64,000 nucleotides of DNA from positions 224,001 through 288,000 of the forward strand of contig JBQLZK010000002.1 of assembly GCA_052168235.1 (NCBI GenBank), read 5' to 3'. A program made the translations under genes and the position numbers. Below the pieces are notes generated by a model. The model saw nothing but the letters and a program-made list of their open reading frames with translations, was not told where the DNA came from and made no database searches. Origin of the DNA: Thainema sp. (GTDB lineage: Bacteria; Cyanobacteriota; Cyanobacteriia; Phormidesmidales; Phormidesmidaceae). This document shows, piece after piece, positions 4,556 through 36,970 of the stretch. Position 1 is the first letter of the stretch. Each line of letters begins with the position of its first letter.

Positions 4556-5194
4556 TTATTGACAAGGCTTGAAAGAGCGGCGATGTTGCTTTGATGCGCC
4601 ATAGGCTAGTAGAGCCTGACGGTGAGCTGCGCTGCCATATCCCTTGTTCTGGGCAAGATGGTAGTGAGGATATCGAGTTGAAAGCCTGACAATTAAGCGA
4701 TCTCGCCACACTTTAGCCAGGATGCTGGCAGATGCGATCGCAATTGAGCGTTGATCACCTTTTATCCAAGCTTCCTGAGGAATCGCCAAATTTGGTACGA
4801 GCTGGTTACCATCAATTAGGCAAACATCAGGCGCTGGCTGTAATCGCGAAATTGCCCGCTTCATTGCTAATAAGGATGCCTGCAGGATATTTATGCGATC
4901 GATTTCCCAGACGGACGCCAGCCCGATCTGGCAATCAATGGCAGCCTGCTTAATTTCCTCCACTAATGCTTCTCGCTTAGCAGGAGTAAGTTTTTTGCTA
5001 TCCGTTACGCCCAAATCCATCAAACGCTGAGAATGGCAGGGCTGAAGAATAACAGCCGCTGCCACTACAGGCCCAAATAGTGCACCACGGCCAACCTCAT
5101 CAACGCCTGCGAGTAGGCTATTATCTCGCAGGCGATTTGTCTCATTCATCTGTTCCCGTTGCATCAGCCCTAGTAGTTCCAGTTGCTCTGGCAT
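4556..5194 (-). CDS. rnhB: Ribonuclease HII
   Basis: AGVDEVGRGALFGPV, DSKKL, KGD..S.AIASASILAKV.RD, NKGYG, HRRSF; downstream of rne as usual in cyanobacteria. Confidence 0.97.
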   Translation of the reverse strand: MPEQLELLGLMQREQMNETNRLRDNSLLAGVDEVGRGALFGPVVAAAVILQPCHSQRLMDLGVTDSKKLTPAKREALVEEIKQAAIDCQIGLASVWEIDRINILQASLLAMKRAISRLQPAPDVCLIDGNQLVPNLAIPQEAWIKGDQRSIAIASASILAKVWRDRLIVRLSTRYPHYHLAQNKGYGSAAHRQALLAYGASKQHRRSFKPCQ

Positions 5195-5230
5195 TGGCTA
5201 CATTTCTGCATAGTGCTCTGCAAGTTCAAC

Positions 5231-7336
5231 CTATCCTTCTCGGCTAGCTGCCGTTTCAGTCGCCGACGAACGCCGCCGCCGCCGCCGTGTTGTTCTAGAC
5301 GACGAACTGCTGCTTTCAGCTGCTTCCGGTGGCTCATCTTCACTACTGTCTAAACCGGATTCGTTTATCTCAGACGAATCTGCTGTCATGTCTGAGTCGG
5401 TTAGGTTTGGCAAATCCGGTTCTGGATTTGAGGCGGATGTTTCCTCCTCTCCGTCTGCTAGTCTCGATGACGTAACATCTTCTTTAGTTTCAGCAGCGTT
5501 TCTAGCAGGGGTGTTTTGTCCATTTGCCGCTGCTGGCCCATCGGTGGTGGGTGTTGCTTCACCGGGGAGTACGACGGAGACAATGGCTGACTTAGTATCA
5601 GTTGGTGTGCGCTCGCTCAAGACTAGGGGTGAAATGCCGAGCATTGCATAGACTTCCTGTTCCTCAGGCGTCATTTCAACCACAATGACTTCTGGCTCAA
5701 CTCCAGCATTGCGATCGCGGCGACCGTTGCGGGAGCGACCGTTGCGTTCCGAACGGGATCTGGAACTTTGAGAAGTCTCTCGTGGTTCACGTTCTTCAAC
5801 CGATTCTCTATCCCGGTCTTTTTCACGATTGGCAAACGATGGTGTAGCGCTGCTATCCTTTCCACCTCGTCCTGGTGGACTGGTCTCGCGACGGCGGCGG
5901 CGGCGGCTACTCCGATGTCCGCTGGTACTACGCTCTTGATAGCTAGGATGGTGTATTAGCTCCAATGCTTGTGGATCTTGCGTTGGATCCAATTCCAAAT
6001 CATCATTCGGCTGAGTAATGGTTTCACGCATTGATACCGGGCGAGGCTCTGCTGATGGTAGCTCACGCGGCACAGCTAGTGGATCGACCACCTGAGGTTC
6101 TTCGCCGGGTAAATGAGCGATATGGCCAAGCCCACCGCAGCTCGGACAGGTTTGACCAAACAATTCGTAAATATTTTGCCCTTGGCGCTTACGGGTGAGT
6201 TCAACTAAGCCCAATTCAGACAGCTGCGCAATTTGCGGTCTAGCTTTATCAGCGCGCAGTGCTTTGTTGAAGTGTTCGAGCACCTGGAGCTGATCGCGGC
6301 GGGAATCCATGTCGATGAAATCGACGATAATCACACCCGCGACGTTGCGTAAACGAAGCTGACGGGCAATTTCTGTGGCCGCTTCACAGTTTGTCCACAA
6401 CACGGTTTCACGGGCCGTAGCGGAGCGGGTAAACGAACCGGAGTTAACGTCAATTACCGTTAATGCTTCAGTTGGCTCAATAATGATGTAACCGCCGGAG
6501 GGCAGGTCAACCCGCGGCTTGAGTGCTTCTCGAATGGCCGCATTGACCCGGAAGTATTCGAGGATAGGAACCCGTTCGCGGTGCTGATCAATCAAAACAC
6601 CTTGAGGAGGGCGACCACCATTCCAGTTGGCCAGATGCTGCTTAATTCGCTTAACGCCAGTGTGGGAATCAACTACAATACGATTTACGCCAGCGCTGTA
6701 GACATCTCGTAACACTCGCTGAACAAAATCATCATCCCGGTTTAGCAGACTGGGTGGGCGAGTAGACAAGGCTTCCTGCTGAATGCTTTCCCACTGGCGC
6801 TGTAGAAATTCTAAATCTTCAATGATGGCTTCTTCGGCTACCCCTTCGGCTTCAGTGCGCACCAGCAGCCCCATGCCAGCAGGCTTAACCAAAACGGCCA
6901 ACGCACGTAAGCGACTACGTTCTGCTTCATTCCGGATCCGGCGGGATAGATTAACGCCTCGGCCAAACGGCATGAGTACCAGATAGCGTCCGGGCAAGGT
7001 AATGTTGCCAGTAAGCCGAGGGCCTTTGTTGCCCGTTGGCTCCTTCATGATCTGCACCAAAACTTTTTGTTGAGGTGCGAGCAATTCTGTGATGGATGCG
7101 GCTGAACGCTTGAGTCGTAATGGCCCTAAGTCGGTAACGTGGATAAAGCCATTGCGTTCACTATCGCCGATATTCACAAAAGCGGCATCAATGCCAGGAA
7201 GAACATTTTCTACGACACCGAGATAAATATCGCTGACTTGATGGCTTCCTTTGGCAACAATGAGTTCTTGTATTTGGTCTTCGGAGAATACAGCCGCAAT
7301 TCGATGCTGCTCCGCAATAATAATTTGCTTAGGCAT
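5231..7336 (-). CDS. rne: Ribonuclease E
   Basis: S1 domain, VIDVNSG, IVDFIDM, CPSCGG Zn-link, disordered C-terminus with RRRRRRSSA motifs. Confidence 0.97.
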   Translation of the reverse strand: MPKQIIIAEQHRIAAVFSEDQIQELIVAKGSHQVSDIYLGVVENVLPGIDAAFVNIGDSERNGFIHVTDLGPLRLKRSAASITELLAPQQKVLVQIMKEPTGNKGPRLTGNITLPGRYLVLMPFGRGVNLSRRIRNEAERSRLRALAVLVKPAGMGLLVRTEAEGVAEEAIIEDLEFLQRQWESIQQEALSTRPPSLLNRDDDFVQRVLRDVYSAGVNRIVVDSHTGVKRIKQHLANWNGGRPPQGVLIDQHRERVPILEYFRVNAAIREALKPRVDLPSGGYIIIEPTEALTVIDVNSGSFTRSATARETVLWTNCEAATEIARQLRLRNVAGVIIVDFIDMDSRRDQLQVLEHFNKALRADKARPQIAQLSELGLVELTRKRQGQNIYELFGQTCPSCGGLGHIAHLPGEEPQVVDPLAVPRELPSAEPRPVSMRETITQPNDDLELDPTQDPQALELIHHPSYQERSTSGHRSSRRRRRRETSPPGRGGKDSSATPSFANREKDRDRESVEEREPRETSQSSRSRSERNGRSRNGRRDRNAGVEPEVIVVEMTPEEQEVYAMLGISPLVLSERTPTDTKSAIVSVVLPGEATPTTDGPAAANGQNTPARNAAETKEDVTSSRLADGEEETSASNPEPDLPNLTDSDMTADSSEINESGLDSSEDEPPEAAESSSSSSRTTRRRRRRSSATETAASREG

Positions 7337-8008
7337 TCAATTTCCTCGAAATCTGATGATGAGCATCTGAACCGTGCTGCTCATGACTGCGTGTTAAGGG
7401 GGACATAATTCTTTGGCAGATAGGGGTTCAATCTAGGGGTTAAATCAATAGTGGTAAACACGCCCGATACGAATCGGAATGCACCAGTTGTGCATAGAAT
7501 TTAAGTTTTCCAGCGATTCGCTATCGAGGCATTAACCCGATACTGTAACAACCTCAATCACCCCTAGAGTTTGACAACTCAGCATTGTTTCAACGTTGTT
7601 TTAAAGCTGGCGATGCATATAACCTTTTTGCCGCGAGTCAATATACGGCAAAACCAGCCTGCACGATTACCGACTTGGCAATGCCAGACACTCGTGAATC
7701 AGTGCTGAAAGCAGAAAATGTTTGCGGTTGACAGCTTTTCGTCTACAAGCGTTGCCTTATAAATCCTTTGCATACCTCAAAGGATTAAAGGTATCTAAAA
7801 TAACTGGAAAGTCTGACAGAAGCTAATTTGATCCAGCACTCGCTGCGAACTGAATGTCTGACAACCTTATGACAGTTTTCGGCCTATTAGCAGCTTCTGT
7901 TTAGAGCATTATAGCGCTTGTTGTGCAACAAACAACCCTATTAATGGAATTTTCTATATTTGTTAAGCCCAGTTAGAGCGTGAGCAGAGGAGAGAGGAAG
8001 CTGGATTG

Positions 8009-8066
8009 AAATGTGTGCCTAAATTATTGCGTACAGCACTGTACGCAATAATTTAGGCACACATTT
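8009..8066. repeat. Perfect 28-bp-arm inverted repeat (terminator or palindromic element)
   Basis: aaatgtgtgcctaaattattgcgtacag-ca-ctgtacgcaataatttaggcacacattt. Confidence 0.9.
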
Positions 8067-8155
8067 AAGCTCTTGAACAATTTGCGAAAGCTGCGCCAAC
8101 TGGTACCCCAATGTGAGGAAATGCTCACAAAGAGGAATCAATAGAATTTTGGTGT

Positions 8156-10882
8156 CTATTCGAGAATTAAGCGATCGCGATGGATATGCAGAAGCTGTAG
8201 CTCAATGCTAGCGGCATTTTGCAGCATGTTAACTAGGGTTTCTGGTCGCAGCATCGTGCCGTCATTGCGGCAGCTACCGATGTAGCGAATCTTGACCGCA
8301 TTTCGCTGAGATGCATCGCTAGCAGATTCCGAACTGGGAGACTCTAGCTGCAGATCAAATAACAGTTCCCGCAGGTTGAGAATTTTGGTTTTACCGGACT
8401 TAGTCTTCTTCTCATGTGGGATGTCCTCTGCCGCCAGAATCGATGTGATCCAGTCTGGCCAGGGTAGCGTTTCAGCGGACACAGGTTCAGCATCTTCGGT
8501 CAGCACTGGCGCAACGGTCAGCACATACTCAGCGCGGTGGAGCTGTTTGGTGGCAGAGGGTTCGCTCAAGTCAATTGACTCGACTCGATAGATGGGGATT
8601 TCATGTGGTAGTTGAGCGGCTAACTGCGATCGCACTTCTTCTGGATCGCGGTATTCTATCAGTTCAAAATCCGCGATTTCGCCCGTACTGGTTGCGCCGA
8701 GCGGTAACGCATTAGCGGGAGAGATGCGGGGGCCAGGATGAAATCCGCCAGTAAAGGTAATTGGAATGCCAGCTCGCCGGACAGCGCGGTCGAAGAGGCG
8801 CATGAGGTCTAAGTGCCCAATGTAGGTCATGTCACCATGCTTGCCAAAGTAGACCCGTAGGCGTTGCGATCGCGTCTGGTTGGGGACAAAATGACCCTCA
8901 AATTTAGGAATCGGTAACGGTGGCACGACAATGTTGTGACCAAAATCCGGGCCACAGATACCGCAGTGGGAGCAGCCTTCAAAGGAGCAGTCGGGGACAG
9001 TTGCCGCCTCTAGTGCCCGTAGCAGATCATCTTTGAGCCATTGTTTGCTAATGCCCGTATCCAGGTGATCCCAAGGCAGAGGTGCATCAATCTGGGCAAG
9101 TTGGTTAGAACTTTCTGACACTGGATCAGCAGATGCCGATTCAGGGTTGAACTCGGTATTGGATCCAGTACTGGACTCGGTACCGACGGGTATCAAGTTC
9201 CATTCACCCGCCTCGACTTGGCGATATTTCCAGGTTAGCCCCGCCGCATCAATGGCCTGCGCCCAAGCATCAAAGGCGCGATCGAGGCTTTCCCACCAGG
9301 AATCCATGCCTGCACCGAGTTCCCAAGCGTGGCGGACAACGGCAGACAATCTGCGATCGCCCCGTCCGACGAAATCTTCCATTGCAGAAATGCGGACATC
9401 GGTGAAATTGGCCTTGACGCCCCGCATTTGGCGAAATTCTTCACGCAGTAGCGCTTGTTTCCGCAAAAACTCACTGGTGGAAACCGTATGCCACTGAAAC
9501 GGCGTGTGGGGTTTGGGGGTGAAGTTGGAAATTGTGATATTAAAATCCAGACGGCGGCGCTTAGGCAACTGACACTCCTGCCGCAGCCAGCGCACGGTTT
9601 CAGCAATGCCAATCACGTCCACATCGGTTTCACCGGGCAGACCAATCATGAAGTAGAGCTTGACCTTGCTCCAGCCCTGCTCATAGGCCGTTTTTACGCC
9701 GCGCAGCAGTTCTTCATTGGTCAATCCTTTATTAATGATGTCGCGCATCCGCTGGGTACCCGCTTCGGGTGCGAAGGTCAGACCCGTTTGTCGCGTACCG
9801 CCGACGACATTGGCGATATCTTCATCGAAGCGATCCACCCGCTGACTGGGTAGAGAAACAGAGATATTCTGGTGCTTCAGGCGGTTTTTGACTTCCATGC
9901 CGACGGCAGGCAGGGCAAGATAGTCTGAGCAACTGAGGGACAGCAGCGAAAACTCGTTGTATCCCGTTGCCCGCATACCCTGCTCAATCGTGTCTACAAC
10001 TTGTTCTGGATCAACATCGCGGGCGGGTCGCGTCAGCATTCCCGGCTGGCAGAAGCGGCAGCCACGGGTGCAGCCCCGGCGGATTTCGACCGTCAGGCGA
10101 TCGTGAACGGTTTGGACATAGGGCACTAATCCAATGGAGTAGGCAGGCATTGGATCGGAAACCCGTCGCAGAACACGCGCAGGCACATTGGGGCGATTGG
10201 GATGAACCGAGCCATCTTCGGCCATGTCGTAGAACTGAGGAACGTAAACACCGGGGACTTGAGCCAAGTCGAGCAGCAGCTCCTCGCGACTGAGACCTGC
10301 CGCTTTACCCTGCTCTAGAACGAGACCAATTTCCGGCAGCAGTTCTTCGCCGTCACCCAAGGCAATGAAGTCGAAAAAGTCGGCGTAGGGTTCTGGATTC
10401 GACGTTGCGGTCTGCCCCCCCGCAAAAATCAGCGGATAGCTGTCCGATTCTACCTGCCAGCGATCGCAACTTTGTCGCTCTTTCCATGTCAGTGGAATAC
10501 CAGCCAAATCCAGCATTTCTAAAATATTGGTCGCCCCTAGCTCATAGCTGAGACTAAAGCCCAGAATGTCAAACTCTTTGAGATCGCGGCGCGATTCAAC
10601 GGCGAACAGCGGCGTGTTGGTTTGCCGCAGTTTGGTAGCTAGATCCGGCGCGGGCAGATAAGCGCGATCGCACAATTGGCGCGGCTGAGCATTGAGGATG
10701 CTGTAGAGAATGATGTGACCGAGGTTGGATGCACCAACTTCATAAATTTCGGGATAGGTCAGCACCCAACGCACGGCGGCACTATCCCACGGACGATGCA
10801 CGGCTCCCAACTCGTTACCCAAGTAACGAGCGGGCTGCATAATCTCAGATGTCAACAGGTTCTCAACAGCAACTGTCACCAA
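8156..10882 (-). CDS. TIGR03960-type radical SAM protein fused to DUF2344 domain
   Basis: QPARYLGNE N-terminus, CTRGCRFC motif, C-terminal GHLDLMRLFDRAVRRAGIP...GGFHP. Confidence 0.9.
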   Translation of the reverse strand: MVTVAVENLLTSEIMQPARYLGNELGAVHRPWDSAAVRWVLTYPEIYEVGASNLGHIILYSILNAQPRQLCDRAYLPAPDLATKLRQTNTPLFAVESRRDLKEFDILGFSLSYELGATNILEMLDLAGIPLTWKERQSCDRWQVESDSYPLIFAGGQTATSNPEPYADFFDFIALGDGEELLPEIGLVLEQGKAAGLSREELLLDLAQVPGVYVPQFYDMAEDGSVHPNRPNVPARVLRRVSDPMPAYSIGLVPYVQTVHDRLTVEIRRGCTRGCRFCQPGMLTRPARDVDPEQVVDTIEQGMRATGYNEFSLLSLSCSDYLALPAVGMEVKNRLKHQNISVSLPSQRVDRFDEDIANVVGGTRQTGLTFAPEAGTQRMRDIINKGLTNEELLRGVKTAYEQGWSKVKLYFMIGLPGETDVDVIGIAETVRWLRQECQLPKRRRLDFNITISNFTPKPHTPFQWHTVSTSEFLRKQALLREEFRQMRGVKANFTDVRISAMEDFVGRGDRRLSAVVRHAWELGAGMDSWWESLDRAFDAWAQAIDAAGLTWKYRQVEAGEWNLIPVGTESSTGSNTEFNPESASADPVSESSNQLAQIDAPLPWDHLDTGISKQWLKDDLLRALEAATVPDCSFEGCSHCGICGPDFGHNIVVPPLPIPKFEGHFVPNQTRSQRLRVYFGKHGDMTYIGHLDLMRLFDRAVRRAGIPITFTGGFHPGPRISPANALPLGATSTGEIADFELIEYRDPEEVRSQLAAQLPHEIPIYRVESIDLSEPSATKQLHRAEYVLTVAPVLTEDAEPVSAETLPWPDWITSILAAEDIPHEKKTKSGKTKILNLRELLFDLQLESPSSESASDASQRNAVKIRYIGSCRNDGTMLRPETLVNMLQNAASIELQLLHIHRDRLILE

Positions 10883-29998: not shown

Positions 29999-30460
29999 TT
30001 ACTGAAAATCTGGATAGTTGCGACTGCCTTCAAACATTGATTCCAATTCCTCAACAGTTGCCAGAATTGCCTCTGTGTCTCCATCTGTAACCAATTCTTT
30101 AATCTCTTTGAGCCGTTCTAGCACTCCTGTTTGTCCATCCGGCAACAATGCCTGGAACTGATACCAATTGTAGAGGTGATATAGCAAATGATATGTCATG
30201 CCAATATCCGGTTCACGGTTGGGTTCACATAGAAACAGCTCTAAATCGACTAACCAGTCTATGGCGGCTCCAACTCCGTCCACGTAAGTATGAAAAACAG
30301 CCGTTTTCAACATTTCGCTTGGTGTATTGGGAAAGACTTGGCGAAATGCCCGTTCTGCTTCGCTACTTAGGTCACTTCGCTGTAGCAAGGTTCGTACTAT
30401 TTCCCAACGCTGCTCTCGATTCAGTGGTTTTGGTGTATGTGGATCTTTTGACGGTTGCAT
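29999..30460 (-). CDS. Hypothetical protein
   Basis: 153-aa ORF with AGGTG upstream, opposite to the surrounding operon. Confidence 0.7.
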   Translation of the reverse strand: MQPSKDPHTPKPLNREQRWEIVRTLLQRSDLSSEAERAFRQVFPNTPSEMLKTAVFHTYVDGVGAAIDWLVDLELFLCEPNREPDIGMTYHLLYHLYNWYQFQALLPDGQTGVLERLKEIKELVTDGDTEAILATVEELESMFEGSRNYPDFQ

Positions 30461-30546
30461 CTAATCACACCTAGTAAAACTAATCACCCGCTCTAATCAA
30501 GCGATTTTGGCATATATCTCTATTCGTTATCTCCCAAAAACATCTA

Positions 30547-30681
30547 ATGACACGACTCTCCAATCTTGCTCGCAAAAAGAACATCCATTACTTCCTAATC
30601 TACTTCACTGACCTGTTCGGTACTCAGCGCGCCAAGCTTGTCCCTGCGGCTGCAATTGACGAGATGGCCGCTAGTGGTGCA
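30547..30681 (+). pseudogene. Truncated duplicate of the glnT 5' end (~45 codons)
   Basis: ...YFLIYFTDLFGTQRAKLVPAAAIDEMAASGA matches the 35660 gene start; similarity ends just before the HIP1 site at 30685. Confidence 0.9.
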
Positions 30682-30841
30682 GATGCGATCGCGCTTCTCA
30701 GAATCTGCATGCTCCAAATCCAACGAATTTTCAGGATTGATTGTTGCAAGATTGAAGATGTAAGCGGGAATACTGAGAAGTGGATCTGCTTAACCGCTGC
30801 TTCATTCTTCTCTGCACTAGCTCTCCGAAGTTTTACTGATT

Positions 30842-32572
30842 ATGTCGCGCCTCCTCGTCACGCAGTATCAATCTGAAGTTGATAGCCTCATCCGCTATGG
30901 TGGGTCGCGCAATGAAGCCAGCATTCGGCGGGCGTTTGAAAATTTGCTGAACCAGTACTGCAAGCCGCGCAACTACATGCTGGTGCCAGAGCTGGACTAC
31001 AAGACCAAGTTCAATACGACGGTTAGGCCCGATGGCACAGTGAAGGATGCTATTCGCCTAGAGCATGGCTGGTGGGAGAGCAAAGACGAATACGACGTGC
31101 TCGATGAGGAAATTGAGAAGAAGTTTGCTAAGGGCTATCCCGACGAAAATATTTTGTTTGAAGACTCCCAGACGGCGGTGCTGTATCAGCATGGGCGGGA
31201 GCAGTTGCGGGTGTCGATGCGCGATGCCGATGAGCTGGACGGGCTGATCGCCACGTTTGTCGATTACGAACGGCCTGAAGTGCGGGACTTTCGGACGGCG
31301 ATCAAAGCCTTTCGCGATGATATTCCTCACATTCTGGAAGCGCTGCGAGATCAAATTCATCAGGCCGAGCGAGAAAATGAGCGGTTCCGGGAACGCCGCA
31401 ACACGTTTCTGGAAGTCTGCCGCCAGTCCATCAACCCGGAAATTGAGATCTTCGACATCCATGAGATGTTGATTCAGCACATTCTCACGGAGGATATTTT
31501 CACCAATATTTTCCATGAGTCGCAGTTTCACCGCGAAAACAACATCGCGCGGGAAATCTCAGAAATTCTCGCCACGTTTTTTACGGGAGCGACGCGCAAG
31601 AATACGCTGAAAAGCATTGAGCACTACTACGCGGTGATCCGCCGCAAGTCGGAAAACATCGCCAATCACCACGAAAAGCAGAAGTTTCTCAAGGCGGTGT
31701 ATGAGAACTTTTACAAGGCGTACAACCCCAAAGCTGCGGATCGGCTGGGCATTGTCTACACGCCGAATGAAATTGTGCGCTTCATGATTGAGAGTGCCGA
31801 TTATTTGACCCACAAGCATTTTGGCAAGCTGCTGAGTGATCCGGGGGTGGAGATTTTAGACCCCTGCACGGGTACGGGCACCTATGTGACGGAGCTGATT
31901 GAGTATTTGCCAACCGATAAGCTGGAGCACAAATATAAGCATGAGATTCACTGCAATGAAGTGGCGATTTTGCCCTATTACATTGCGAACTTGAATATTG
32001 AGTTTACCTATCAGCAAAAGATGGGTAAGTACGAGGAGTTTAAGAATATTTGTCTGGTGGATACACTGGATCACTGCAGTGCAGCAGGCCACCAGTTTGA
32101 CCTGTTTGCTATGAGTGTGCAGAACACGTCGCGGATTCAGCAGCAGAACGATCGCACCATCTCTGTCATCATCGGCAATCCGCCCTACAACGCCCACCAG
32201 GAAAACTTCAATCAGCGCAACGCTAACCGCCCCTACCAAAGTATCGATAAGGCCATCAAAGACAGCTATATCAAGGAAGGCACTGCCCAGAACCAAATCG
32301 TTGTCTACGATATGTATACCCGCTTCTTTCGCTGGGCAACGGATCGATTAGGCAAGAACGGAATCATCGCGTTTATTACTAATCGCTCTTTCATCGACTC
32401 GAAAACCTTTGATGGCTTTCGTAAATGTATTGAGCGAGACTTTGACCATATCTACATTGTGGATACTCAATCAGATGTGAGAAACAATCCCAAAATCTCT
32501 GGCACCAAGAACAACGTTTTTGGCATTCAAACCGGAATCGCTGTGATGTTTTTAGTAAAAGCGCAGGGCTAG
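30842..32572 (+). CDS. Type IIG/ISP-like RM enzyme, nuclease + N6-adenine methyltransferase part
   Basis: RPDG...WWESKD PD-(D/E)xK-like motif; GIVYTP; ILDPCTGTG (motif I); IGNPPY (motif IV); no helicase motifs. Confidence 0.88.
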   Translation: MSRLLVTQYQSEVDSLIRYGGSRNEASIRRAFENLLNQYCKPRNYMLVPELDYKTKFNTTVRPDGTVKDAIRLEHGWWESKDEYDVLDEEIEKKFAKGYPDENILFEDSQTAVLYQHGREQLRVSMRDADELDGLIATFVDYERPEVRDFRTAIKAFRDDIPHILEALRDQIHQAERENERFRERRNTFLEVCRQSINPEIEIFDIHEMLIQHILTEDIFTNIFHESQFHRENNIAREISEILATFFTGATRKNTLKSIEHYYAVIRRKSENIANHHEKQKFLKAVYENFYKAYNPKAADRLGIVYTPNEIVRFMIESADYLTHKHFGKLLSDPGVEILDPCTGTGTYVTELIEYLPTDKLEHKYKHEIHCNEVAILPYYIANLNIEFTYQQKMGKYEEFKNICLVDTLDHCSAAGHQFDLFAMSVQNTSRIQQQNDRTISVIIGNPPYNAHQENFNQRNANRPYQSIDKAIKDSYIKEGTAQNQIVVYDMYTRFFRWATDRLGKNGIIAFITNRSFIDSKTFDGFRKCIERDFDHIYIVDTQSDVRNNPKISGTKNNVFGIQTGIAVMFLVKAQG

Positions 32573-32586
32573 ACAAGGGGCACAGA

Positions 32587-34116
32587 CAAGGGGCTTAAGC
32601 CCCTTGTTCATAAGGGAGGGGGAGAAGCATGAGCAAGGCGAAAATCTATTACTTTACGCTGCAAGATGAGCAGACCAAGGAAGAAAAGCTGGAGTGGTTT
32701 GAGCAAACCCGTCTAGAGCAAATCCTGTTTGAGCATATCACCCCAGACCGCAAGCACAACTGGGTGAATTTGACCGACAACGATTTTGATGACTTCTTGC
32801 CGCTGATTGATAAGCAGGTAAAGGCAAGTAAGTCACAAGAAGCTGTTTTTCAGCTTTTTTCAGCGGGGGTTAAGACTCAGCGCGATGAGTGGGTTTATGA
32901 CTTCTCAAAAGAAGCGCTAATTGAGCGCATGAAGTATTTCGTCGAGGTATATCAAGAGCGTCTAAGAGATGGATCGCGACGAAATTTAGACATCAAGTGG
33001 GATCGTGAGCTTGAAAAATATTTGACTAGTAACGTCAAGAAGAGTTTTCATACATCTAATATAGTTCAAAGTATTTACCGACCGTATACAAAACAGTATC
33101 TCTATTTTGATAAGCATTTCAATGGAATGACTTATCAACTTCCAAGTATTTTTCCATCAGCAAAGAAACCTAATAAGGCTATTTGGATTAAATCGGGTAT
33201 AGATGCTCCGTATTTTCATTGGGTTGTAGAGCACATCCCTGATGTGCTTACAAACGGTGGCTCTCAATGCCTCCCCCTCTATCGCTATGACGAAAACGGA
33301 ACCCGCATCGACAACATCACCGACTGGGCATTAGAGCAGTTTCGGCAACATTACAAAGCAGAGTTAGACCAAGCAGCGTCTAAGGCAGCGTCAGGCAAGG
33401 GGCTTAAGCCCCTTGTTCCCCACACAGATGTAGAAAAGCGCAGCGCAGAACAAAACGATCGCTCAGGCGAACCGGGCAAGGGGCTTAAGCCCCTTGTCTC
33501 AGCGGAGCCCCTTGTTCCCCATACATGGTGGTTTGTAACTTTCGTGACTCATAACGCTCGCGTATCCGAACGCATGGTTACTTACGGCGTCAAAAAAGGG
33601 GAACCGCTTATCTTTTCAGCCGAAGATCAAATCTTTATTGCTGAGCAGATTGCTGAAGCTGTCAAACGGTACGAAATTGCGATCGCCGCCTTCAATGTTC
33701 TACCCGATCACGTCCACATGGTGGTTGCCGCATCAACCGAAGCAGAACTGAACGAAAAGATCCGCAAAATCAAAGGTTTTAGTTCTCACCAATATCAGCG
33801 ATCGCGAGACTGGGATAAAGGTCAGCATGTTTGGGCGCAAAAATTTAACCGACAGGCGATCGAAAATGAAATTGCCCTCACTGAGATTTTGGAATATGTG
33901 CTGAATAACCACACTAAACATGCTGAACGCTGGGGCAATGAACTCATTACGATATGGAATGAGGGTGTTACTCCTGGGAACAAGGGGCTTAAGCCCCTTG
34001 TCTTAGAGGGGCCCCTTGCCTCTAGTCGGCCTCTTGCCGAAATTGTGCGAGAAGTCTGCGTTCCGCTTGAAGAGCTTTTCAGCTCTGGAGGGGGAACAAG
34101 GGGCTTAAGCCCCTTG
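32587..34116. repeat. Five copies of 20-bp perfect palindrome CAAGGGGCTTAAGCCCCTTG
   Basis: Copies at 32587, 33396, 33477, 33981, 34097; half copies near 32573, 33506, 34011. Confidence 0.95.
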
Positions 34117-34749
34117 TCTGACCAAGTTGACCAGGCAGAAATCACCAAACTCGACATCTTCCACTACACCTACGCCGTCCTCCACCATCCCGCCTACCGC
34201 ACCAAATACGAACTCAACCTCAAACGCGAATTTCCTCGCCTGCCCTACTACCCCAACTTCCAACAGTGGGCCACCTGGGGCAAAACCCTCATGGATCTGC
34301 ACCTCACCTACGAAACCGCCGCACCCTACGGCCTCGAACGCATTGATCAATCCGGCGTAGGGGCGAATGGCCATTCGCCCCTACAGGCATCGTTAATTCC
34401 CGAAGAAGACACCCCCGCCAAACCCAAGAAAACCCCCAAACCCAAACTCAAAGCCGACAAAACCCAAGGCCATATCATCCTCGATACCGATACCACCCTT
34501 ACCGGAGTGCCCGCCGTTGCCTGGGACTACAAACTCGGCAACCGCTCCGCCCTGGAGTGGATACTCGATCAATACAAAGAAAAGAAACCCAAAGATCCTA
34601 CGATCCGAGAACTCTTCAACACCTACCGCTTCGCCGATTACAAAGAGCACGTCATCGACCTACTCCAGCGCGTCTGCACCGTCAGCGTCGAGACGATGAA
34701 AATCATCCACCAAATGCCCGACACTGTAGAACATGAAGGCGAGGCATGA
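32629..34749 (+). CDS. Type ISP-like C-terminal specificity subunit with in-frame RAYT insertion
   Basis: GVKTQRDEWVY, YRPY, NITDWAL..F..HY, ITKLDIFHY.YAVLHHPAYR.KY..NLKREFPRLP, LGNRSALEW; own purine-rich RBS. Confidence 0.85.
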   Translation: MSKAKIYYFTLQDEQTKEEKLEWFEQTRLEQILFEHITPDRKHNWVNLTDNDFDDFLPLIDKQVKASKSQEAVFQLFSAGVKTQRDEWVYDFSKEALIERMKYFVEVYQERLRDGSRRNLDIKWDRELEKYLTSNVKKSFHTSNIVQSIYRPYTKQYLYFDKHFNGMTYQLPSIFPSAKKPNKAIWIKSGIDAPYFHWVVEHIPDVLTNGGSQCLPLYRYDENGTRIDNITDWALEQFRQHYKAELDQAASKAASGKGLKPLVPHTDVEKRSAEQNDRSGEPGKGLKPLVSAEPLVPHTWWFVTFVTHNARVSERMVTYGVKKGEPLIFSAEDQIFIAEQIAEAVKRYEIAIAAFNVLPDHVHMVVAASTEAELNEKIRKIKGFSSHQYQRSRDWDKGQHVWAQKFNRQAIENEIALTEILEYVLNNHTKHAERWGNELITIWNEGVTPGNKGLKPLVLEGPLASSRPLAEIVREVCVPLEELFSSGGGTRGLSPLSDQVDQAEITKLDIFHYTYAVLHHPAYRTKYELNLKREFPRLPYYPNFQQWATWGKTLMDLHLTYETAAPYGLERIDQSGVGANGHSPLQASLIPEEDTPAKPKKTPKPKLKADKTQGHIILDTDTTLTGVPAVAWDYKLGNRSALEWILDQYKEKKPKDPTIRELFNTYRFADYKEHVIDLLQRVCTVSVETMKIIHQMPDTVEHEGEA
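33355..34140 (+). mobile_element. REP-associated tyrosine transposase (Y1 HUH) domain with flanking palindromes, in frame in the RM subunit
   Basis: WFVTFVT, VLPDHVH (HUH, 33709-33717), KIKGFSS, VWAQKF, EYVLNN (Tyr codon at 33895). Confidence 0.82.
34357..34384. repeat. GTAG-type REP-like palindrome inside the coding frame
   Basis: gtaggggcgaatggccattcgcccctac, translated VGANGHSPL. Confidence 0.85.
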
Positions 34750-34753
34750 TGGT

Positions 34754-34840
34754 GCTGTGAGCAACCATTTCAAACTCTCCGATACCAAGAACAACGTCTT
34801 TGGCATTCAAACCAGAACCGCTGTCATGTTTTTAGTAAAA
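34754..34840 (+). repeat. Diverged duplicate of the MTase gene 3' end
   Basis: Aligns ungapped with 32474-32560 (accaagaacaacgt.tttggcattcaaacc.gaa.cgctgt.atgtttttagtaaaa). Confidence 0.9.
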
Positions 34841-34860
34841 ACTGCTGAGGAGAAAAAGCC

Positions 34861-35130
34861 ATGATTCAACCTACTTTGTTAGAGAAACTAGAGGTATTAC
34901 CAGAATCACTACAAACGGAAGTGCTGCATTATGTTGAATTTCTGTTAGAGAAACACCTCAAAAATAAACCACCTAGCCTTTTAGAATTACGGGAAGAATT
35001 ACAGCAGGAATTAGCGCAACTCACGCCGGAAGAAGCGGAAAAGCGTTATGGATATGGTAGCCTGAAAGGCCAGATTATCATGTCTGATGATTTTGACGAG
35101 CCGCTAGAAGATTTAGCAGAGTATATGTAA
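34861..35130 (+). CDS. DUF2281-type antitoxin
   Basis: LPESLQTEVLHYVEFLL...GSLKGQI.MSDDFDEPLED. Confidence 0.85.
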   Translation: MIQPTLLEKLEVLPESLQTEVLHYVEFLLEKHLKNKPPSLLELREELQQELAQLTPEEAEKRYGYGSLKGQIIMSDDFDEPLEDLAEYM

Positions 35131-35131
35131 C

Positions 35132-35521
35132 ATGCCGATCCTTTTAGATACTCATGCTGTCCTTTGGTATGTTGAGTCAGATCCTAGCCTTAGTGCTAAA
35201 GCTAAGGCTATTTTAGATGCCAAAAAGAATCTGTTTTTTAGTACTGCTAGCCTGTGGGAAACTGCCATCAAGCTCAATGTCGGTAAACTCCAAATCACTT
35301 CGTCATTTAATCAGCTTCTGATTCGGCTTGAGTTCCTGAATATGGAAATTTTGCCGATCAATACAGAAGATCTCAATACTTATATTGGTCTACCTTTATC
35401 GAAGAATCACCGTGATCCCTTTGACCGTATTTTGGTGGCTCAATCCATTAACCATTCAATGCCTATCTTGAGTGGTGACGAGAAATTTGATTTGTATCCA
35501 GTTCAGCGGGTGTGGGAATGA
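35132..35521 (+). CDS. vapC: PIN-domain VapC toxin
   Basis: ILLDTHAVLW, SLWE.AIK, HRDPFDRILVAQ. Confidence 0.9.
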   Translation: MPILLDTHAVLWYVESDPSLSAKAKAILDAKKNLFFSTASLWETAIKLNVGKLQITSSFNQLLIRLEFLNMEILPINTEDLNTYIGLPLSKNHRDPFDRILVAQSINHSMPILSGDEKFDLYPVQRVWE

Positions 35522-35544
35522 GCAAGGCAAAAATCTATTACTTT
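35518..35544 (+). repeat. Duplicate of the specificity-subunit 5' end
   Basis: atgagcaaggcaaaaatctattacttt, 26/27 identical to 32629-32655; ATG overlaps the vapC TGA. Confidence 0.9.
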
Positions 35545-35659
35545 GCTGCGAGATCTGAGGCGGAGATTACGGACAGAAAACCCAGAATCGTGATAATCCA
35601 AGATTGGACTGTAGCGCGATCGCGCTGATTCCCTATACAGCCTTCTTACTCCCCAACCC

Positions 35660-36970
35660 ATGACCCAACCCCTCTCTGACCTCGCCCGCGAAAAAAATAT
35701 CTGCTACTTCCTGATCTCCTTCACCGATTTATTCGGCACCCAACGCGCCAAGCTTGTTCCTGCTGCTGCAATTGACGAGATGGCCGCTAGCGGAGCGGGA
35801 TTTGCCGGATTTGCCACCTGGCTCGACATGACGCCTGCCGATGCCGACATGTTTGCAGTTCCCGACACTGATAGTCTATTCCAGCTACCTTGGAAACCCG
35901 ATGTCGCCTGGATGCCAGCGGATTTGTTTACGCCGAGGATGGATGCGATCGCACAAACGCCGCGCATGGTGCTTCAGCGAGTCCTCCAGCAGGCGCGAGA
36001 CATGGGCTACAGCGTCAAAACGGGGGTGGAATGCGAGTATTTTCTGCTGTCACCGGATGGCGAGGCGCTGTCTGATCCCTACGATCGCCAGGTGAAACCC
36101 TGCTATGACCAGCAGGCACTGATGCGGCGGTTTGATGTGATTGCGGAAATCTGCGATGCCATGCTGGCGCTGGGTTGGGGAGCCTACCAGAACGATCACG
36201 AAGACGCCAACGGTCAGTTTGAGATGAACTGGATGTATGCCGATGCGCTGATCACGGCGGATCGGCATGCGTTCTTTAAGTACATGGTCAAGTCCATTGC
36301 CGAAAAGCATGGTCTGCGAGCCACGTTCATGCCCAAGCCGTTCGCGCACCTGACCGGGAATGGCTGCCACACTCACCTCTCAGTGTGGGACACCAGCGGC
36401 ACAACGAATCTATTTCACGATCCAGAAGGCGAACTAGGTCTGTCGTCACTGGCCTACAACTTCATTGGCGGCGTAATGCATTCAGCATCAGCGCTTTGCG
36501 CCTTTACCAATCCAACCATTAACTCCTACAAGCGGATTAATGCGCCCACCACCCTGTCCGGCGCAACTTGGTCGCCCAATACCGCCAGCTACAGCGGCAA
36601 CAATCGCACCCATGCCATCCGAATTCCTGACTCTGGACGGTTTGAGCTGCGGTTGGCCGATGGTGCAGCTAATCCCTATTTACTCGCAGCGGCAATGGTT
36701 GCGGCAGGACTGGACGGCATTGCCCAGAAGCGTGACCCTGGCCCCCGCTGTGACAACAACAACTACACCGAGCCGCTGCCACAAGGTTCAGCGAAGCCTC
36801 TGCCTGCCAATCTATTAGATGCCTTGCGGCAGTTGGAGCAAAATACCGTCTTCCAGGATGCGATGGGAGCAGAGTTTGTACAGTCTTATCTCAAGCTCAA
36901 GCATCAGGAATGGAACAGCTACCACGCTCAAATTACGCCGTGGGAACGGGAAACGACGCTGGATTGTTAG
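35660..36970 (+). CDS. glnT: GlnT-type glutamate-ammonia ligase / gamma-glutamylmethylamide synthetase-like
   Basis: FTDLFG.QRAKLVPA, GAGFAGFATWLD, NDHEDANGQFEMNW, TFMPKPF..LTGNGCH, NNRTH. Confidence 0.88.
   Translation: MTQPLSDLAREKNICYFLISFTDLFGTQRAKLVPAAAIDEMAASGAGFAGFATWLDMTPADADMFAVPDTDSLFQLPWKPDVAWMPADLFTPRMDAIAQTPRMVLQRVLQQARDMGYSVKTGVECEYFLLSPDGEALSDPYDRQVKPCYDQQALMRRFDVIAEICDAMLALGWGAYQNDHEDANGQFEMNWMYADALITADRHAFFKYMVKSIAEKHGLRATFMPKPFAHLTGNGCHTHLSVWDTSGTTNLFHDPEGELGLSSLAYNFIGGVMHSASALCAFTNPTINSYKRINAPTTLSGATWSPNTASYSGNNRTHAIRIPDSGRFELRLADGAANPYLLAAAMVAAGLDGIAQKRDPGPRCDNNNYTEPLPQGSAKPLPANLLDALRQLEQNTVFQDAMGAEFVQSYLKLKHQEWNSYHAQITPWERETTLDC

Follow-up and report, generated by a model that had tools for sequence, protein, structure and literature searches.

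A split DrdV-like enzyme carries a RAYT-type domain in frame

The window, i.e. the whole 64-kb stretch of DNA that was analysed, contains two neighbouring genes on the forward strand, ORF1 and ORF2, the second of which holds a palindrome-flanked domain of the RAYT type. The locus comprises the following features, with the strand given where one applies.

30842..32572, + strand: ORF1, 576 aa; one half of a split DrdV-like Type IIL R-M enzyme (predicted), with PD-ExK nuclease, helical connector and N6-adenine methyltransferase
32587..32606: fifth palindrome copy, in the ORF1-ORF2 spacer, exact 20 nt
32629..34749, + strand: ORF2, 706 aa; recognition-domain half of the enzyme (predicted), with the RAYT insert in frame
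32629..33354, + strand: host part N, aa 1–242; variable recognition region
33355..34140, + strand: insert, REP doublet-RAYT-REP doublet, 786 nt or 262 codons
33390..33428: left arm of a 39-nt inverted repeat, containing the outer left palindrome (33396–33415)
33477..33496: inner left palindrome
33505..33960, + strand: RAYT-type Y1/HUH core, aa 293–444 (Pfam Y1_Tnp, NCBIfam, AF2 fold)
33981..34000: inner right palindrome, in the conserved RAYT C-terminal tail (KGLKPLV...EIVR)
34084..34122: right arm of the 39-nt inverted repeat, containing the outer right palindrome (34097–34116, read RGLSPL); z -6.6
34141..34749, + strand: host part C, aa 505–706; conserved C-terminal recognition-domain part

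As judged by alignment, ORF1 and ORF2 together are a two-gene homologue of DrdV, a Type IIL enzyme whose structure has been solved. ORF1 matches residues 1–578 of PDB 7LO5 end to end (phmmer, E 6.4e-202) and displays the Pfam families ISP_coupler, N6_Mtase and Eco57I, while ORF2 matches residues 588–839 and 842–1026 of the same structure (E 6.8e-114) and contains Type_ISP_C in two stretches (Pfam, E 5.6e-92). The ORF1 translation has D64, E79 and K81 as well as NPPY; the accessible part of the DrdV preprint names the positions of these residues and of NPPY, along with the DrdV domain limits, and the ORF1 residues coincide with them. ORF1 stops at 32570–32572 and ORF2 starts at 32629, which makes two ORFs with a 56-nt spacer; an AGGGAGG precedes the ORF2 ATG, and ORF2 is open throughout its 706 codons. 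Most of the cyanobacterial homologues among the matches listed are split in this way, the ORF1 part being absent from 111 of 120. Within host part N the GC content drops to 0.32–0.37 at 32900–33200.

A reading of the letters that preceded this work (the sequence-only reading) had taken the host for an RM specificity subunit. The two DrdV matches indicate instead a single-chain type of enzyme, Type IIL, that is split here, the host of the insert being the half with the recognition domain. A Type I HsdS-like specificity subunit was ruled out, both ORFs aligning to DrdV; a helicase-bearing Type ISP enzyme (LlaGI/LlaBIII) was also rejected, the ORF1-LlaBIII alignment starting only at residue 751, and Pfam detected in the host ORFs no helicase family of the RecA-like kind that a Type ISP enzyme would need.

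The host segment NITDWALEQFRQHY has its last base at 33354 and the segment ITKLDIFHY its first at 34141, so that the 262-codon separation of two RM-type segments within one open frame, as originally described, is correct. The 786 nt between them are a multiple of three, and the insertion point lies between DrdV residues 839 and 842, within the recognition domain. That the insert flanks are open is not a trivial matter: their alternative frames hold stops (2 and 3 on the left, 2 and 5 on the right), and just 246 of 20000 flank shuffles were stop-free in frame. No ATG, GTG or TTG that could serve as the insert's own start codon was found in frame from 33355 to the first strand at about 33520, and the first methionine of the RAYT domain, M312, comes after that strand. 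An intron or ribozyme inside the insert was dropped as a candidate, the Rfam scan of 30400–35700 at E <= 1 giving a chance-level miRNA as its sole match. An intein was likewise rejected: Pfam found no Hint/intein family at E <= 0.01, and the junction residues vary among homologues. As the boundaries shift with the number of palindromes and neither a Hint domain nor splice-junction residues were seen, the insert is most likely retained after translation, as part of the mature protein.

The Y1/HUH domain keeps its catalytic residues

The HMM scan placed Y1_Tnp at aa 328–426 (Pfam, E 2.2e-13), with the HUH histidines H361 and H363 at 33709–33717 and the catalytic tyrosine Y423 at 33895–33897. The AF2 model of the core has a pLDDT above 90, and its top Foldseek match is 4ER8, the E. 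coli TnpA-REP (E 4.9e-7). Profile and predicted fold thus bear out the Y1/HUH assignment of the sequence-only reading, as well as its view that the HUH and tyrosine codons are intact; the three residues are also retained in 14/14 embedded copies (see below). Among NCBIfam models REP_Tyr_transpos scores highest (59.2 bits on the insert, 54.8 on ORF2), although the insert does not reach the equivalog cut-off of 80 bits; the IS200 model gives 38 bits, under its cut-off of 55. The tyrosine motif of the window copy reads YVLNNH. In the accessible part of PMC6006769 the class 2 RAYT motif is tabulated as Y-x-x-x-N-P, and the embedded copies have Y-x-x-N-N-H/R; the motif given there for IS200/IS605 TnpA, Y-x-x-x-Q, does not fit the window copy.

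Exact palindromes bracket the domain

The 20-mer palindrome CAAGGGGCTTAAGCCCCTTG occurs in five exact copies in the window, at 32587, 33396, 33477, 33981 and 34097, all five inside the ORF1-ORF2 gene pair; the expected number is 0, and none of 100 shuffles had any copy. An in-frame RAYT-type Y1/HUH insertion with palindromes on both sides, as first proposed, is borne out by the Pfam hits and the exact 20-mers. Two palindromes per side and their translation as KGLKPL or RGLSPL were also right, while the original list of four copies had missed the fifth, in the spacer. The arms 33390–33428 and 34084–34122 are 90% complementary, and for 33396–33415 together with 33477–33496 a REPIN-like long hairpin is predicted to be possible in single-stranded DNA (z -4.8).

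In a contig scan the palindrome was found elsewhere at no fewer than 124 loci, mostly cyanobacterial, and in at least 136 distinct contexts; flanks were taken for 80 of these (at least 124) loci. Among the matches listed, just one locus has a RAYT nearby, and of the 89 copies in loci of 3 kb or more, 83 are not within a long open frame. Tetranucleotide tags beside the hairpin are rare among the matches listed (GTAG in 10/136 contexts, CGTC in 10/136), and CGTC is near just one of the five window palindromes. On either strand, two of the three frames run open through the palindromes; solo palindromes sit in frame inside HypF, E2 and TilS genes elsewhere, and the accessible part of PMC3733652 already reports in-frame intragenic REPs.

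The insertion recurs at one site in DrdV-like hosts

Fourteen protein clusters combine PF18135 and PF01797, the RAYT being at the identical point; thirteen of them are other than the window's and come from NCBI, JGI, ENA and other sources. In 85 of 115 host homologues the site is empty, with the host segments 3–4 residues apart, and since they are adjacent in DrdV as well (839/842), the empty state is regarded as ancestral. The sequence-only reading had the two host segments nearly adjacent in Type ISP/IIG C-terminal domains, which agrees with these alleles, and the alignment of homologues that it proposed revealed other inserts too: a DUF559 nuclease occupies the same loop in 16 homologues, and the site also accepts repeat-only and low-complexity inserts. 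The nearest relatives of the window host are P0055, with a 16-aa insert and 92% identity over the aligned host part, and P0056, with a DUF559 insert. In the 14 DrdV-embedded copies both HUH histidines and the tyrosine are retained throughout (14/14); the palindromes number 0–3 on the left and 0–4 on the right, and the frame is always kept.

On the tree of the 115 host homologues, nine changes are required for the nine RAYT carriers whose host part is nearly full; with only the N part the number is 9, with only the C part 8, and the mean after shuffling is 8.8. A single clade for seven carriers was rejected (cost 715 lnL, p-AU 7.5e-5) in an AU test on a 43-row subset of the host tree from which the long rows P0077 and P0087 were left out. 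The scatter is consistent with the original suggestion of an element hitchhiking on a defence gene; the host gene is itself a mosaic with shuffled N parts, and such mosaicism alone would scatter any trait on the host tree. On the RAYT tree all 14 embedded copies cluster with nine short ORFs (support 86), and this grouping argues for a single colonisation of the DrdV-like host family. RAYT identity exceeds host N-part identity in 36/36 pairs; between P0052 and P0054 the RAYT domains are 100% identical and the N parts merely 69%.

At the protein level, the flank signature W-A-L-x-x-F-R is present in 25/25 nuclease-insert alleles and in 0/85 empty ones. The best tblastn match, the Geminocystis plasmid pGM04, also shows the flank, as WALEQFR, next to an insert of low complexity; the signature may thus be the mark of a lineage of alleles that tolerate inserts, or of an adaptation in structure, and not of co-conversion. 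No RAYT-bearing allele on a plasmid was found in the best 25 of 224 records matching in tblastn.

Related domains lie in Eco57I-type methyltransferases

Of 48 long relatives, 45 have a related RAYT domain in frame within an Eco57I-type methyltransferase, at a single fixed site, and the locus L032 is a DNA-level example of the lineage inside such a host. The 52 other long proteins all retain both HUH histidines, and 47 of them the tyrosine. Of the best 120 Eco57I-type homologues of L032, 115 are empty, and six Eco57I-type carriers need just two changes on a 121-row host tree; this looks more like vertical inheritance, with a tree that may be biased by the selection of rows. The sequence-only reading was right about the insertion and described too narrow a phenomenon, with DUF559 at the same loop and the RAYT lineage also in a second type of host.

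A mobile element that may live as a protein domain

A RAYT inside an R-M enzyme, with relatives similarly placed in many R-M enzymes, looks like a mobile element living as a domain. We put the probability at roughly 0.6 that it is a mobile and essentially selfish REP-RAYT unit, which persists in frame, is translated within its host and spreads between alleles. According to this reading, a REP-RAYT-REP unit of about 0.78 kb would have settled in the recognition-domain linker at DrdV 839/842, where extra protein would be tolerated and, with the frame kept, the host enzyme would not be destroyed. The unit would have lost its own start codon and be translated solely as part of the host protein, inside which the RAYT domain would fold independently between disordered linkers encoded by the palindromes. 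We infer expression as an RM fusion, nuclease activity of the embedded domain and the route of spread, for which two candidates may be considered, alone or together: recombination among alleles that would carry short host flanks along, as in homing-like gene conversion, and an HUH-mediated single-strand cut-and-join at the hairpins. Points against this reading are the confinement of the window's palindromes to one gene pair (5 of 5), the mosaic nature of the host gene and the few changes that the Eco57I-type carriers need.

A broader version of this proposal, which we offer tentatively, is that a RAYT-type HUH lineage has become a 'domain parasite' of R-M enzymes, inserted in frame only, at two fixed permissive sites, and homing between alleles. 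One site would be the linker in the recognition domain of DrdV-like enzymes, the other the loop that precedes NPPY in Eco57I-type methyltransferases. Such a parasite would use the transcription, the translation and perhaps the DNA binding of its host, the chimeric enzyme might gain a single-strand DNA activity, and the whole would in effect parallel inteins at the level of DNA, without splicing and with defence genes as its special hosts.

That a domain lacking a start codon of its own is strongly conserved would be compatible with a host function, too. The HUH domain would then be domesticated and a working part of the restriction enzyme, be it as a second single-strand-specific nuclease, as a covalent DNA-attachment module acting via the recognition domain, or as a RAYT maintaining the cell's REPs from an RM gene. 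Besides the missing start codon, the catalytic residues are in favour (14/14 DrdV-embedded copies; HUH 52/52 and Tyr 47/52 in the other long proteins), and so are the fixed insertion site in two host families, the two host-tree changes for six Eco57I-type carriers and the fact that DUF559, the other occupant of the DrdV-type loop, is a nuclease as well. We nevertheless consider domestication unlikely: the RAYT is present in just 9 of the 115 close host homologues, each alone among empty alleles, 115 of the best 120 Eco57I-type homologues of L032 are empty, the host already has an intact PD-ExK nuclease, and the flanking palindromes are exact, recent-looking and variable in number. The earlier idea of an element domesticated to shuffle specificity modules found no direct support, the variable N part of ORF2 being shuffled in empty alleles too.

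Less probable again is a neutral relic, that is an old chance insertion of a REP-RAYT in frame, tolerated in the linker and inactive, with vertical descent and host-gene recombination accounting for its recurrence. A relic should decay, yet HUH and tyrosine are retained in 14/14 copies, the AF2 core keeps a pLDDT above 90, RAYT identity is above host N-part identity in 36/36 pairs, and frame and openness are maintained despite differing palindrome numbers (246/20000 shuffled flanks open). What speaks for a relic is the permissiveness of the linker, where repeat-only and low-complexity inserts are also present, together with the solo in-frame palindromes in HypF, E2 and TilS genes and the intragenic REPs known from the accessible part of PMC3733652. 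Finally, a misassembly or a sequencing frame error could have fused a RAYT gene that stands on its own to a disrupted RM gene, and the window's own protein cluster does consist of one contig, apparently the sole source; the identical in-frame architecture in 13 other clusters (NCBI, JGI, ENA and others) and the L032 DNA make such an artefact very improbable.

According to published descriptions, RAYTs are genes that stand on their own next to their repeats, usually in a single copy. In the literature searched, we found no description of a RAYT embedded in an R-M enzyme, of TnpA-REP fusions, of this palindrome or of the Pfam pair; a large survey of Y1 transposases (PMC6006769) states, in its accessible part, that unusually long proteins were set aside as fusions or annotation errors. 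If shown active, a RAYT translated inside a defence enzyme would represent a new mode of persistence for a mobile element, a view that draws on two enzyme families with fixed sites, retained catalytic residues and a sporadic presence among alleles. It would tie REP biology to the rapid turnover of R-M genes, provide a natural case of a Type IIL recognition domain tolerating large domain insertions, which is relevant to enzyme engineering, and offer a testable system for the action of a RAYT on its own hairpins.

Comparison with known systems

The host aligns with DrdV (Type IIL, PDB 7LO5/7LVV) over residues 1–578 and 588–1026 and retains D64, E79, K81 and NPPY. DrdV is a single polypeptide without an insert, whereas the window host is divided into two genes near DrdV residue 580 and carries 262 residues at position 839/842. 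With the RAYT/TnpA-REP systems ('REPtrons') the insert shares the Y1/HUH fold, REP_Tyr_transpos as best model and flanking inverted hairpin repeats able to pair as doublets. It differs from them in that it is not free-standing, lacks a start codon of its own and is read within another protein, and in scoring below the curated RAYT family cut-off (59 versus 80 bits). The cognate REPs of RAYTs have a GTAG or CGTC tag, whereas the repeat here is a perfect palindrome of 20–24 nt without either; like REPs, it is dispersed and mostly extragenic in other genomes, among the matches listed.

IS200/IS605 elements move by 'peel and paste', with a seamless excision that would restore the host gene. Their TnpA shares the HUH fold (ISDra2 and IS608 matches) and hairpins close to both ends, but their ends are co-oriented and those of the window element inverted; no TnpB accompanies the latter, and identical elements in several copies were not seen. 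Inteins and in-frame homing-endonuclease genes are likewise nuclease-coding selfish inserts at a fixed host point, sporadic among homologues, with empty ancestral alleles and insert-associated flank changes in both cases; inteins have a Hint domain and conserved splice-junction residues, and the window insert has neither. The Rickettsia RPEs and the intragenic REPs of Di Nocera et al. 2013 (PMC3733652) are palindromes similarly tolerated in protein linkers. These are repeats alone, whereas the insert in the window carries the gene of an enzyme as well, in frame and at a fixed site of a gene family.

A RAYT embedded in the recognition half of a putative DrdV-like enzyme

ORF1 aligns end to end with residues 1–578 of PDB 7LO5 (E 6.4e-202), and ORF2 aligns with its residues 588–839 and 842–1026 (E 6.8e-114). 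We take 7LO5 to be the Type IIL enzyme DrdV. Its 1029 residues and residue numbering agree with DrdV as described in bioRxiv 10.1101/2021.01.06.425610, where the methyltransferase covers residues 295–635 and the recognition domain 636–1029, the nuclease residues are D64, E79 and K81, and K807 is the last base-contacting residue named. ORF1 displays D, E and K at exactly positions 64, 79 and 81 as well as NPPY which, together with the alignments, indicates that the host is a DrdV-like nuclease-methyltransferase-recognition enzyme split over two genes. The sequence-only reading had proposed an RM specificity subunit; the recognition domain of an RM enzyme is upheld by the 7LO5 alignment, while a Type I specificity subunit is rejected, ORF1 and ORF2 being a split DrdV-like enzyme. 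A helicase-bearing Type ISP enzyme was also ruled out because the helicase part is absent. Since the ORF1 part is absent in 111 of the 120 best ORF2 homologues (whole or partial in 9), most of those listed may be split likewise.

Features of the split gene and its insert
30842..32572, + strand: ORF1, 576 aa, nuclease-methyltransferase half
32587: fifth copy of the palindrome CAAGGGGCTTAAGCCCCTTG
32629..34749, + strand: ORF2, 706 open codons, recognition half
33355..34140: insert, a RAYT (REP-associated Y1/HUH transposase) between two REP doublets
33396 and 33477: exact palindromes CAAGGGGCTTAAGCCCCTTG, left of the Y1 core
33981 and 34097: exact palindromes CAAGGGGCTTAAGCCCCTTG, right of the Y1 core

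A profile scan, suggested in the sequence-only reading, splits the Pfam match to Type_ISP_C in ORF2 into two stretches (E 5.6e-92) and places Y1_Tnp at residues 328–426 (E 2.2e-13). As that reading had described, two host segments are separated by 786 nt, or 262 codons, between the end of NITDWALEQFRQHY at 33354 and the start of ITKLDIFHY at 34141, with two palindromes on each side of the Y1 core. The insert lies within the recognition domain, 33 residues past DrdV K807. No copy of the palindrome is expected by chance in the 64-kb window, and none was found in its remainder beyond the five. Each outer palindrome is centred in one of two 39-nt inverted arms (33390–33428 versus 34084–34122, 90% complementary), and on single-stranded DNA either palindrome pair can form a single long hairpin (z -4.8 and -6.6). 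Around the Y1 core, the flanks are free of stops in the host frame only, with 2–5 stops in each other frame, and 246/20000 flank shuffles remained open. Between the host part and the first Y1 strand, no in-frame start codon occurs; AGGGAGG lies upstream of the ATG at 32629. GC content is mosaic in ORF2: 0.32–0.37 at 32900–33200, within its variable recognition part, and 0.55–0.57 with a GC skew of about -0.4 at 34100–34600, within its C-terminal part. This agrees with the shuffling of N parts among homologues.

The insert scores best with the NCBIfam model REP_Tyr_transpos (59 bits, under the curated cut-off of 80), while an IS200 model gives 38 bits, under its cut-off of 55. Structure prediction, likewise suggested beforehand, yielded an AlphaFold model of the 262 insert residues with pLDDT >90 in the core (insert residues 55–205); its top structural match is 4ER8, the hairpin-bound E. 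coli REP-associated transposase (E 4.9e-7), and the transposases of ISDra2 and IS608 rank next. Best model and best fold thus bear out the RAYT-type Y1/HUH domain first recognised from sequence. When the whole of ORF2 is modelled, the Y1 domain (residues 299–445) is confident and residues 258–293, 453–460 and 488–500 score <50, so that Y1 is predicted to be a folded domain on disordered linkers, themselves partly translated palindromes.

The insertion site in DrdV-like homologues

Searches with the insert and ORF2 as queries identified 13 protein clusters in addition to the window protein that combine PF18135 and PF01797 (P0001, P0008, P0051–54, P0057, P0058, P0069, P0075, P0077, P0087 and P0100), all with the Y1 domain between FRxHY and ITK(L/E)DIF. 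RGLSPL or KGLKPL peptides, which are the translated palindrome, adjoin the domain in 12/14 proteins, with 0–3 copies on the left and 0–4 on the right; because their number varies among the 14, the reading frame has been retained across many repeat-number changes. The HUH histidines and the tyrosine, previously judged intact, are kept in 14/14 embedded copies, including that of the window.

State of the insertion site in 115 homologues with a near-full host part
Empty, 3–4 residues between the segments as in DrdV: 85/115
RAYT: 9/115
DUF559 / Vsr-like nuclease: 16/115
Short repeat-only insert: 5/115

The homologue alignment, proposed earlier as a way to find empty alleles and other inserts, thus revealed both, and the segment is not a normal part of all homologues. 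DUF559 was called from precomputed PF04480, and the NCBIfam DUF559 model also matched two of these proteins. The carriers, which include P0056, P0063, P0071, P0073, P0124 and P0161, have DUF559 at exactly the same point as the RAYT insert; other translated repeats lie on its flanks, e.g. SPAGEGQGER and PLGKGDSS...PLDKGGSRGD units, and the five repeat-only alleles hold such repeats alone. As a landing site, the loop corresponding to 33355–34140 has received inserts of at least two types, each coding for a nuclease.

Probable spread of the insert between alleles

When the insert is left out, a tree of the host parts requires 9 changes for the 9 RAYT carriers against a shuffled mean of 8.8, so the carriers are not clustered at all; well-supported branches by themselves still force 9, and separate trees require 9 changes for the N part and 8 for the C part. 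In a 43-row subset that excludes the long rows P0077 and P0087, a constraint placing 7 RAYT carriers together lowers the log-likelihood by 715 units (p-AU 7.5e-5). The closest host relatives of the window are P0055, with 92% identity over the aligned host part and a 16-aa insert, and P0056, with its DUF559 insert. On the Y1-domain tree, by contrast, one group (support 86) unites all 14 embedded copies with 9 short ORFs, apparently fragments or free copies. RAYT identity exceeds host N-part identity in 36/36 pairs, and the RAYT domains of P0052 and P0054 are identical, whereas their N parts share only 69% identity. Because DrdV and most homologues share the empty spacing, the empty site is ancestral and the insert spread secondarily.

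W-A-L-x-x-F-R directly precedes the insert in 25/25 nuclease-insert alleles (9 RAYT and 16 DUF559) and is found in 0/85 empty alleles, where W-A-L occurs in 3 and F-R in 1, most having W-G-L-T-Q-F-Q. We read this signature as host sequence that probably travels with the insert, i.e. as recombination or homing-like conversion. Alternatively, the insert may depend on alleles of this type, or the residues could be an adaptation to an insert. An unsplit homologue on the Geminocystis sp. NIES-3708 plasmid pGM04 (L125, 947–4315), followed by a Fic-family gene, displays WALEQFR before a ~115-residue Asn/Asp-rich tract at the insertion site, a finding compatible either with an allele lineage that tolerates inserts or with an occupant that has been replaced repeatedly.

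RAYTs in Eco57I-type methyltransferases

The RAYT core gave 409 matches at E <= 0.001 among 1.84 billion representatives. From the best 150, the 48 non-DrdV-type proteins of at least 394 residues were scanned with Pfam, and 45/48 are Eco57I/N6_Mtase enzymes with an embedded Y1 domain, the other three being a CobQ fusion and two proteins that the Eco57I profile does not match. In rows giving both match halves, that profile is interrupted near position 69. An NPPY-like motif follows the Y1 domain in 43/52 long proteins; in these 43, the domain comes after F-x-W-x-x-E-F-P-x-V/I and 23–164 residues before the motif (23–95 in 42). KGLQPLV-like or KGLKPLV-like peptides occur in many of the long proteins.

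In an Anaerolineae locus (L032), the RAYT lies in frame in such a methyltransferase, directly before GGFDVVIGNPPY and with KGLKPLV on both sides. The enzyme (5033–8574) reads as two ORFs, 5033–6454 and 6514–8574, perhaps because the gene is frameshifted or split before the insert is reached. Among the best 120 homologues of this host, the Y1 domain is present in 5 and absent in 115, and the tree of their C-terminal part needs 2 changes for 6 carriers (shuffled mean 5.9). Carriers group more closely here than among DrdV-like hosts, in a sample biased by a search score that favoured carriers.

The palindrome in other genomes

The 18-mer core, searched in one genome per species, was found at 124 loci or more, and flanks were taken for 80. 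The loci listed are mostly cyanobacterial, with a few from Anaerolineae and others; Limnothrix sp. BL-A-16, for instance, contributes many of them and Leptolyngbya sp. PCC 6406 six. Among the matches listed, the full 20-mer is present in 132/136 distinct contexts, and L032 alone has a RAYT within the fetched flanks. In the listed loci that span 3 kb or more, 83/89 copies are outside long open frames, so that the palindrome behaves as a REP in these genomes. Two of the other six flank the L032 RAYT and four are in frame in long open frames: one in an ORF without Pfam match and three, read as KGLKPL, in genes for HypF (L008, ~5001), 2-oxoacid dehydrogenase E2 acyltransferase (L027, ~3865; in the linker that follows the E3-binding domain) and TilS (L045, ~2540). 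In Leptolyngbya sp. PCC 6406 (L025, L057, L095, L096, L124), the palindrome is centred in a MITE-like repeat of ~100 nt with shared flanks; the DrdV-like gene of this strain (P0068) has an empty site.

Surroundings of the restriction-modification island

Pieces directly after the ORF2 stop (34756–35544)
First: copy of the ORF1 3' end, 85 nt, 86% to 32476–32560
Second, 34861–35130 and 35132–35521: DUF2281 antitoxin / PIN toxin pair
Third, 35518–35544: copy of the ORF2 start, 27 nt, 96%

These pieces look like the remnant of a second ORF1/ORF2 junction with a toxin-antitoxin module in the spacer, where the intact junction has a solo palindrome. The 5' end of a glutamine-synthetase-like gene (35660–36970) is duplicated upstream of ORF1 (30556–30680 versus 35672–35796, 81%). 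As the two copies flank the entire 5-kb RM and toxin-antitoxin island, they suggest its arrival by insertion or recombination at the start of this gene. HIP1 (GCGATCGC), whose abundance marks a cyanobacterial genome, has 69 copies in 64 kb against 1.4 expected. Within 30693–35615 there are two, both in the RAYT core (33679 and 33798), while the parts of the host enzyme lack it, a hint that the enzyme gene arrived more recently than the RAYT sequence.

Origin of the fusion and comparison with known systems

The most likely reading, with a probability of about 0.6, is that a REP-RAYT unit colonised the DrdV-like gene family once, would survive solely in frame within permissive linkers, would be translated as part of the host protein, and may have passed from allele to allele through recombination that includes short flanks, through HUH-mediated cutting and joining at the hairpins, or through both. 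That the fusion is expressed, that it has nuclease activity and how it spread are inferences. The RAYT could instead be a domesticated working module of the enzyme, a reading that we hold to be rather unlikely. A neutral relic has a smaller chance still, and an assembly artefact, with the arrangement recurring in 13 further clusters, is highly improbable. On the preferred reading, this would be a RAYT/REP system that lives embedded and in frame, is translated with its host and has specialised on RM genes.

Literature searches of incomplete coverage, including RAYT with RM and HUH with Type IIG, found no description of the arrangement, and a term search of the main text of Bertels et al. 2017 (PMC5581495) found no mention of methyltransferases or fusions. 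According to Quentin et al. 2018 (PMC6006769), unexpectedly long proteins were dropped from that survey as fusions or annotation errors. Intragenic REPs in frame are already known (PMC3733652). The tyrosine motif of the insert, Y-V-L-N-N-H, is similar but not identical to the class 2 motifs tabulated in PMC6006769, and the palindrome differs from classified REPs in having no GTAG/CGTC tag, each tag occurring in 10/136 contexts listed. A more distant free-standing relative (P0021, 237 aa) has KGLPPL and KGLLPL units before its Y1 domain and a KGLQPLV unit inserted within it, the latter agreeing with the "REP insertions within tnpA-REP genes" of subclass 2.4 in that survey.
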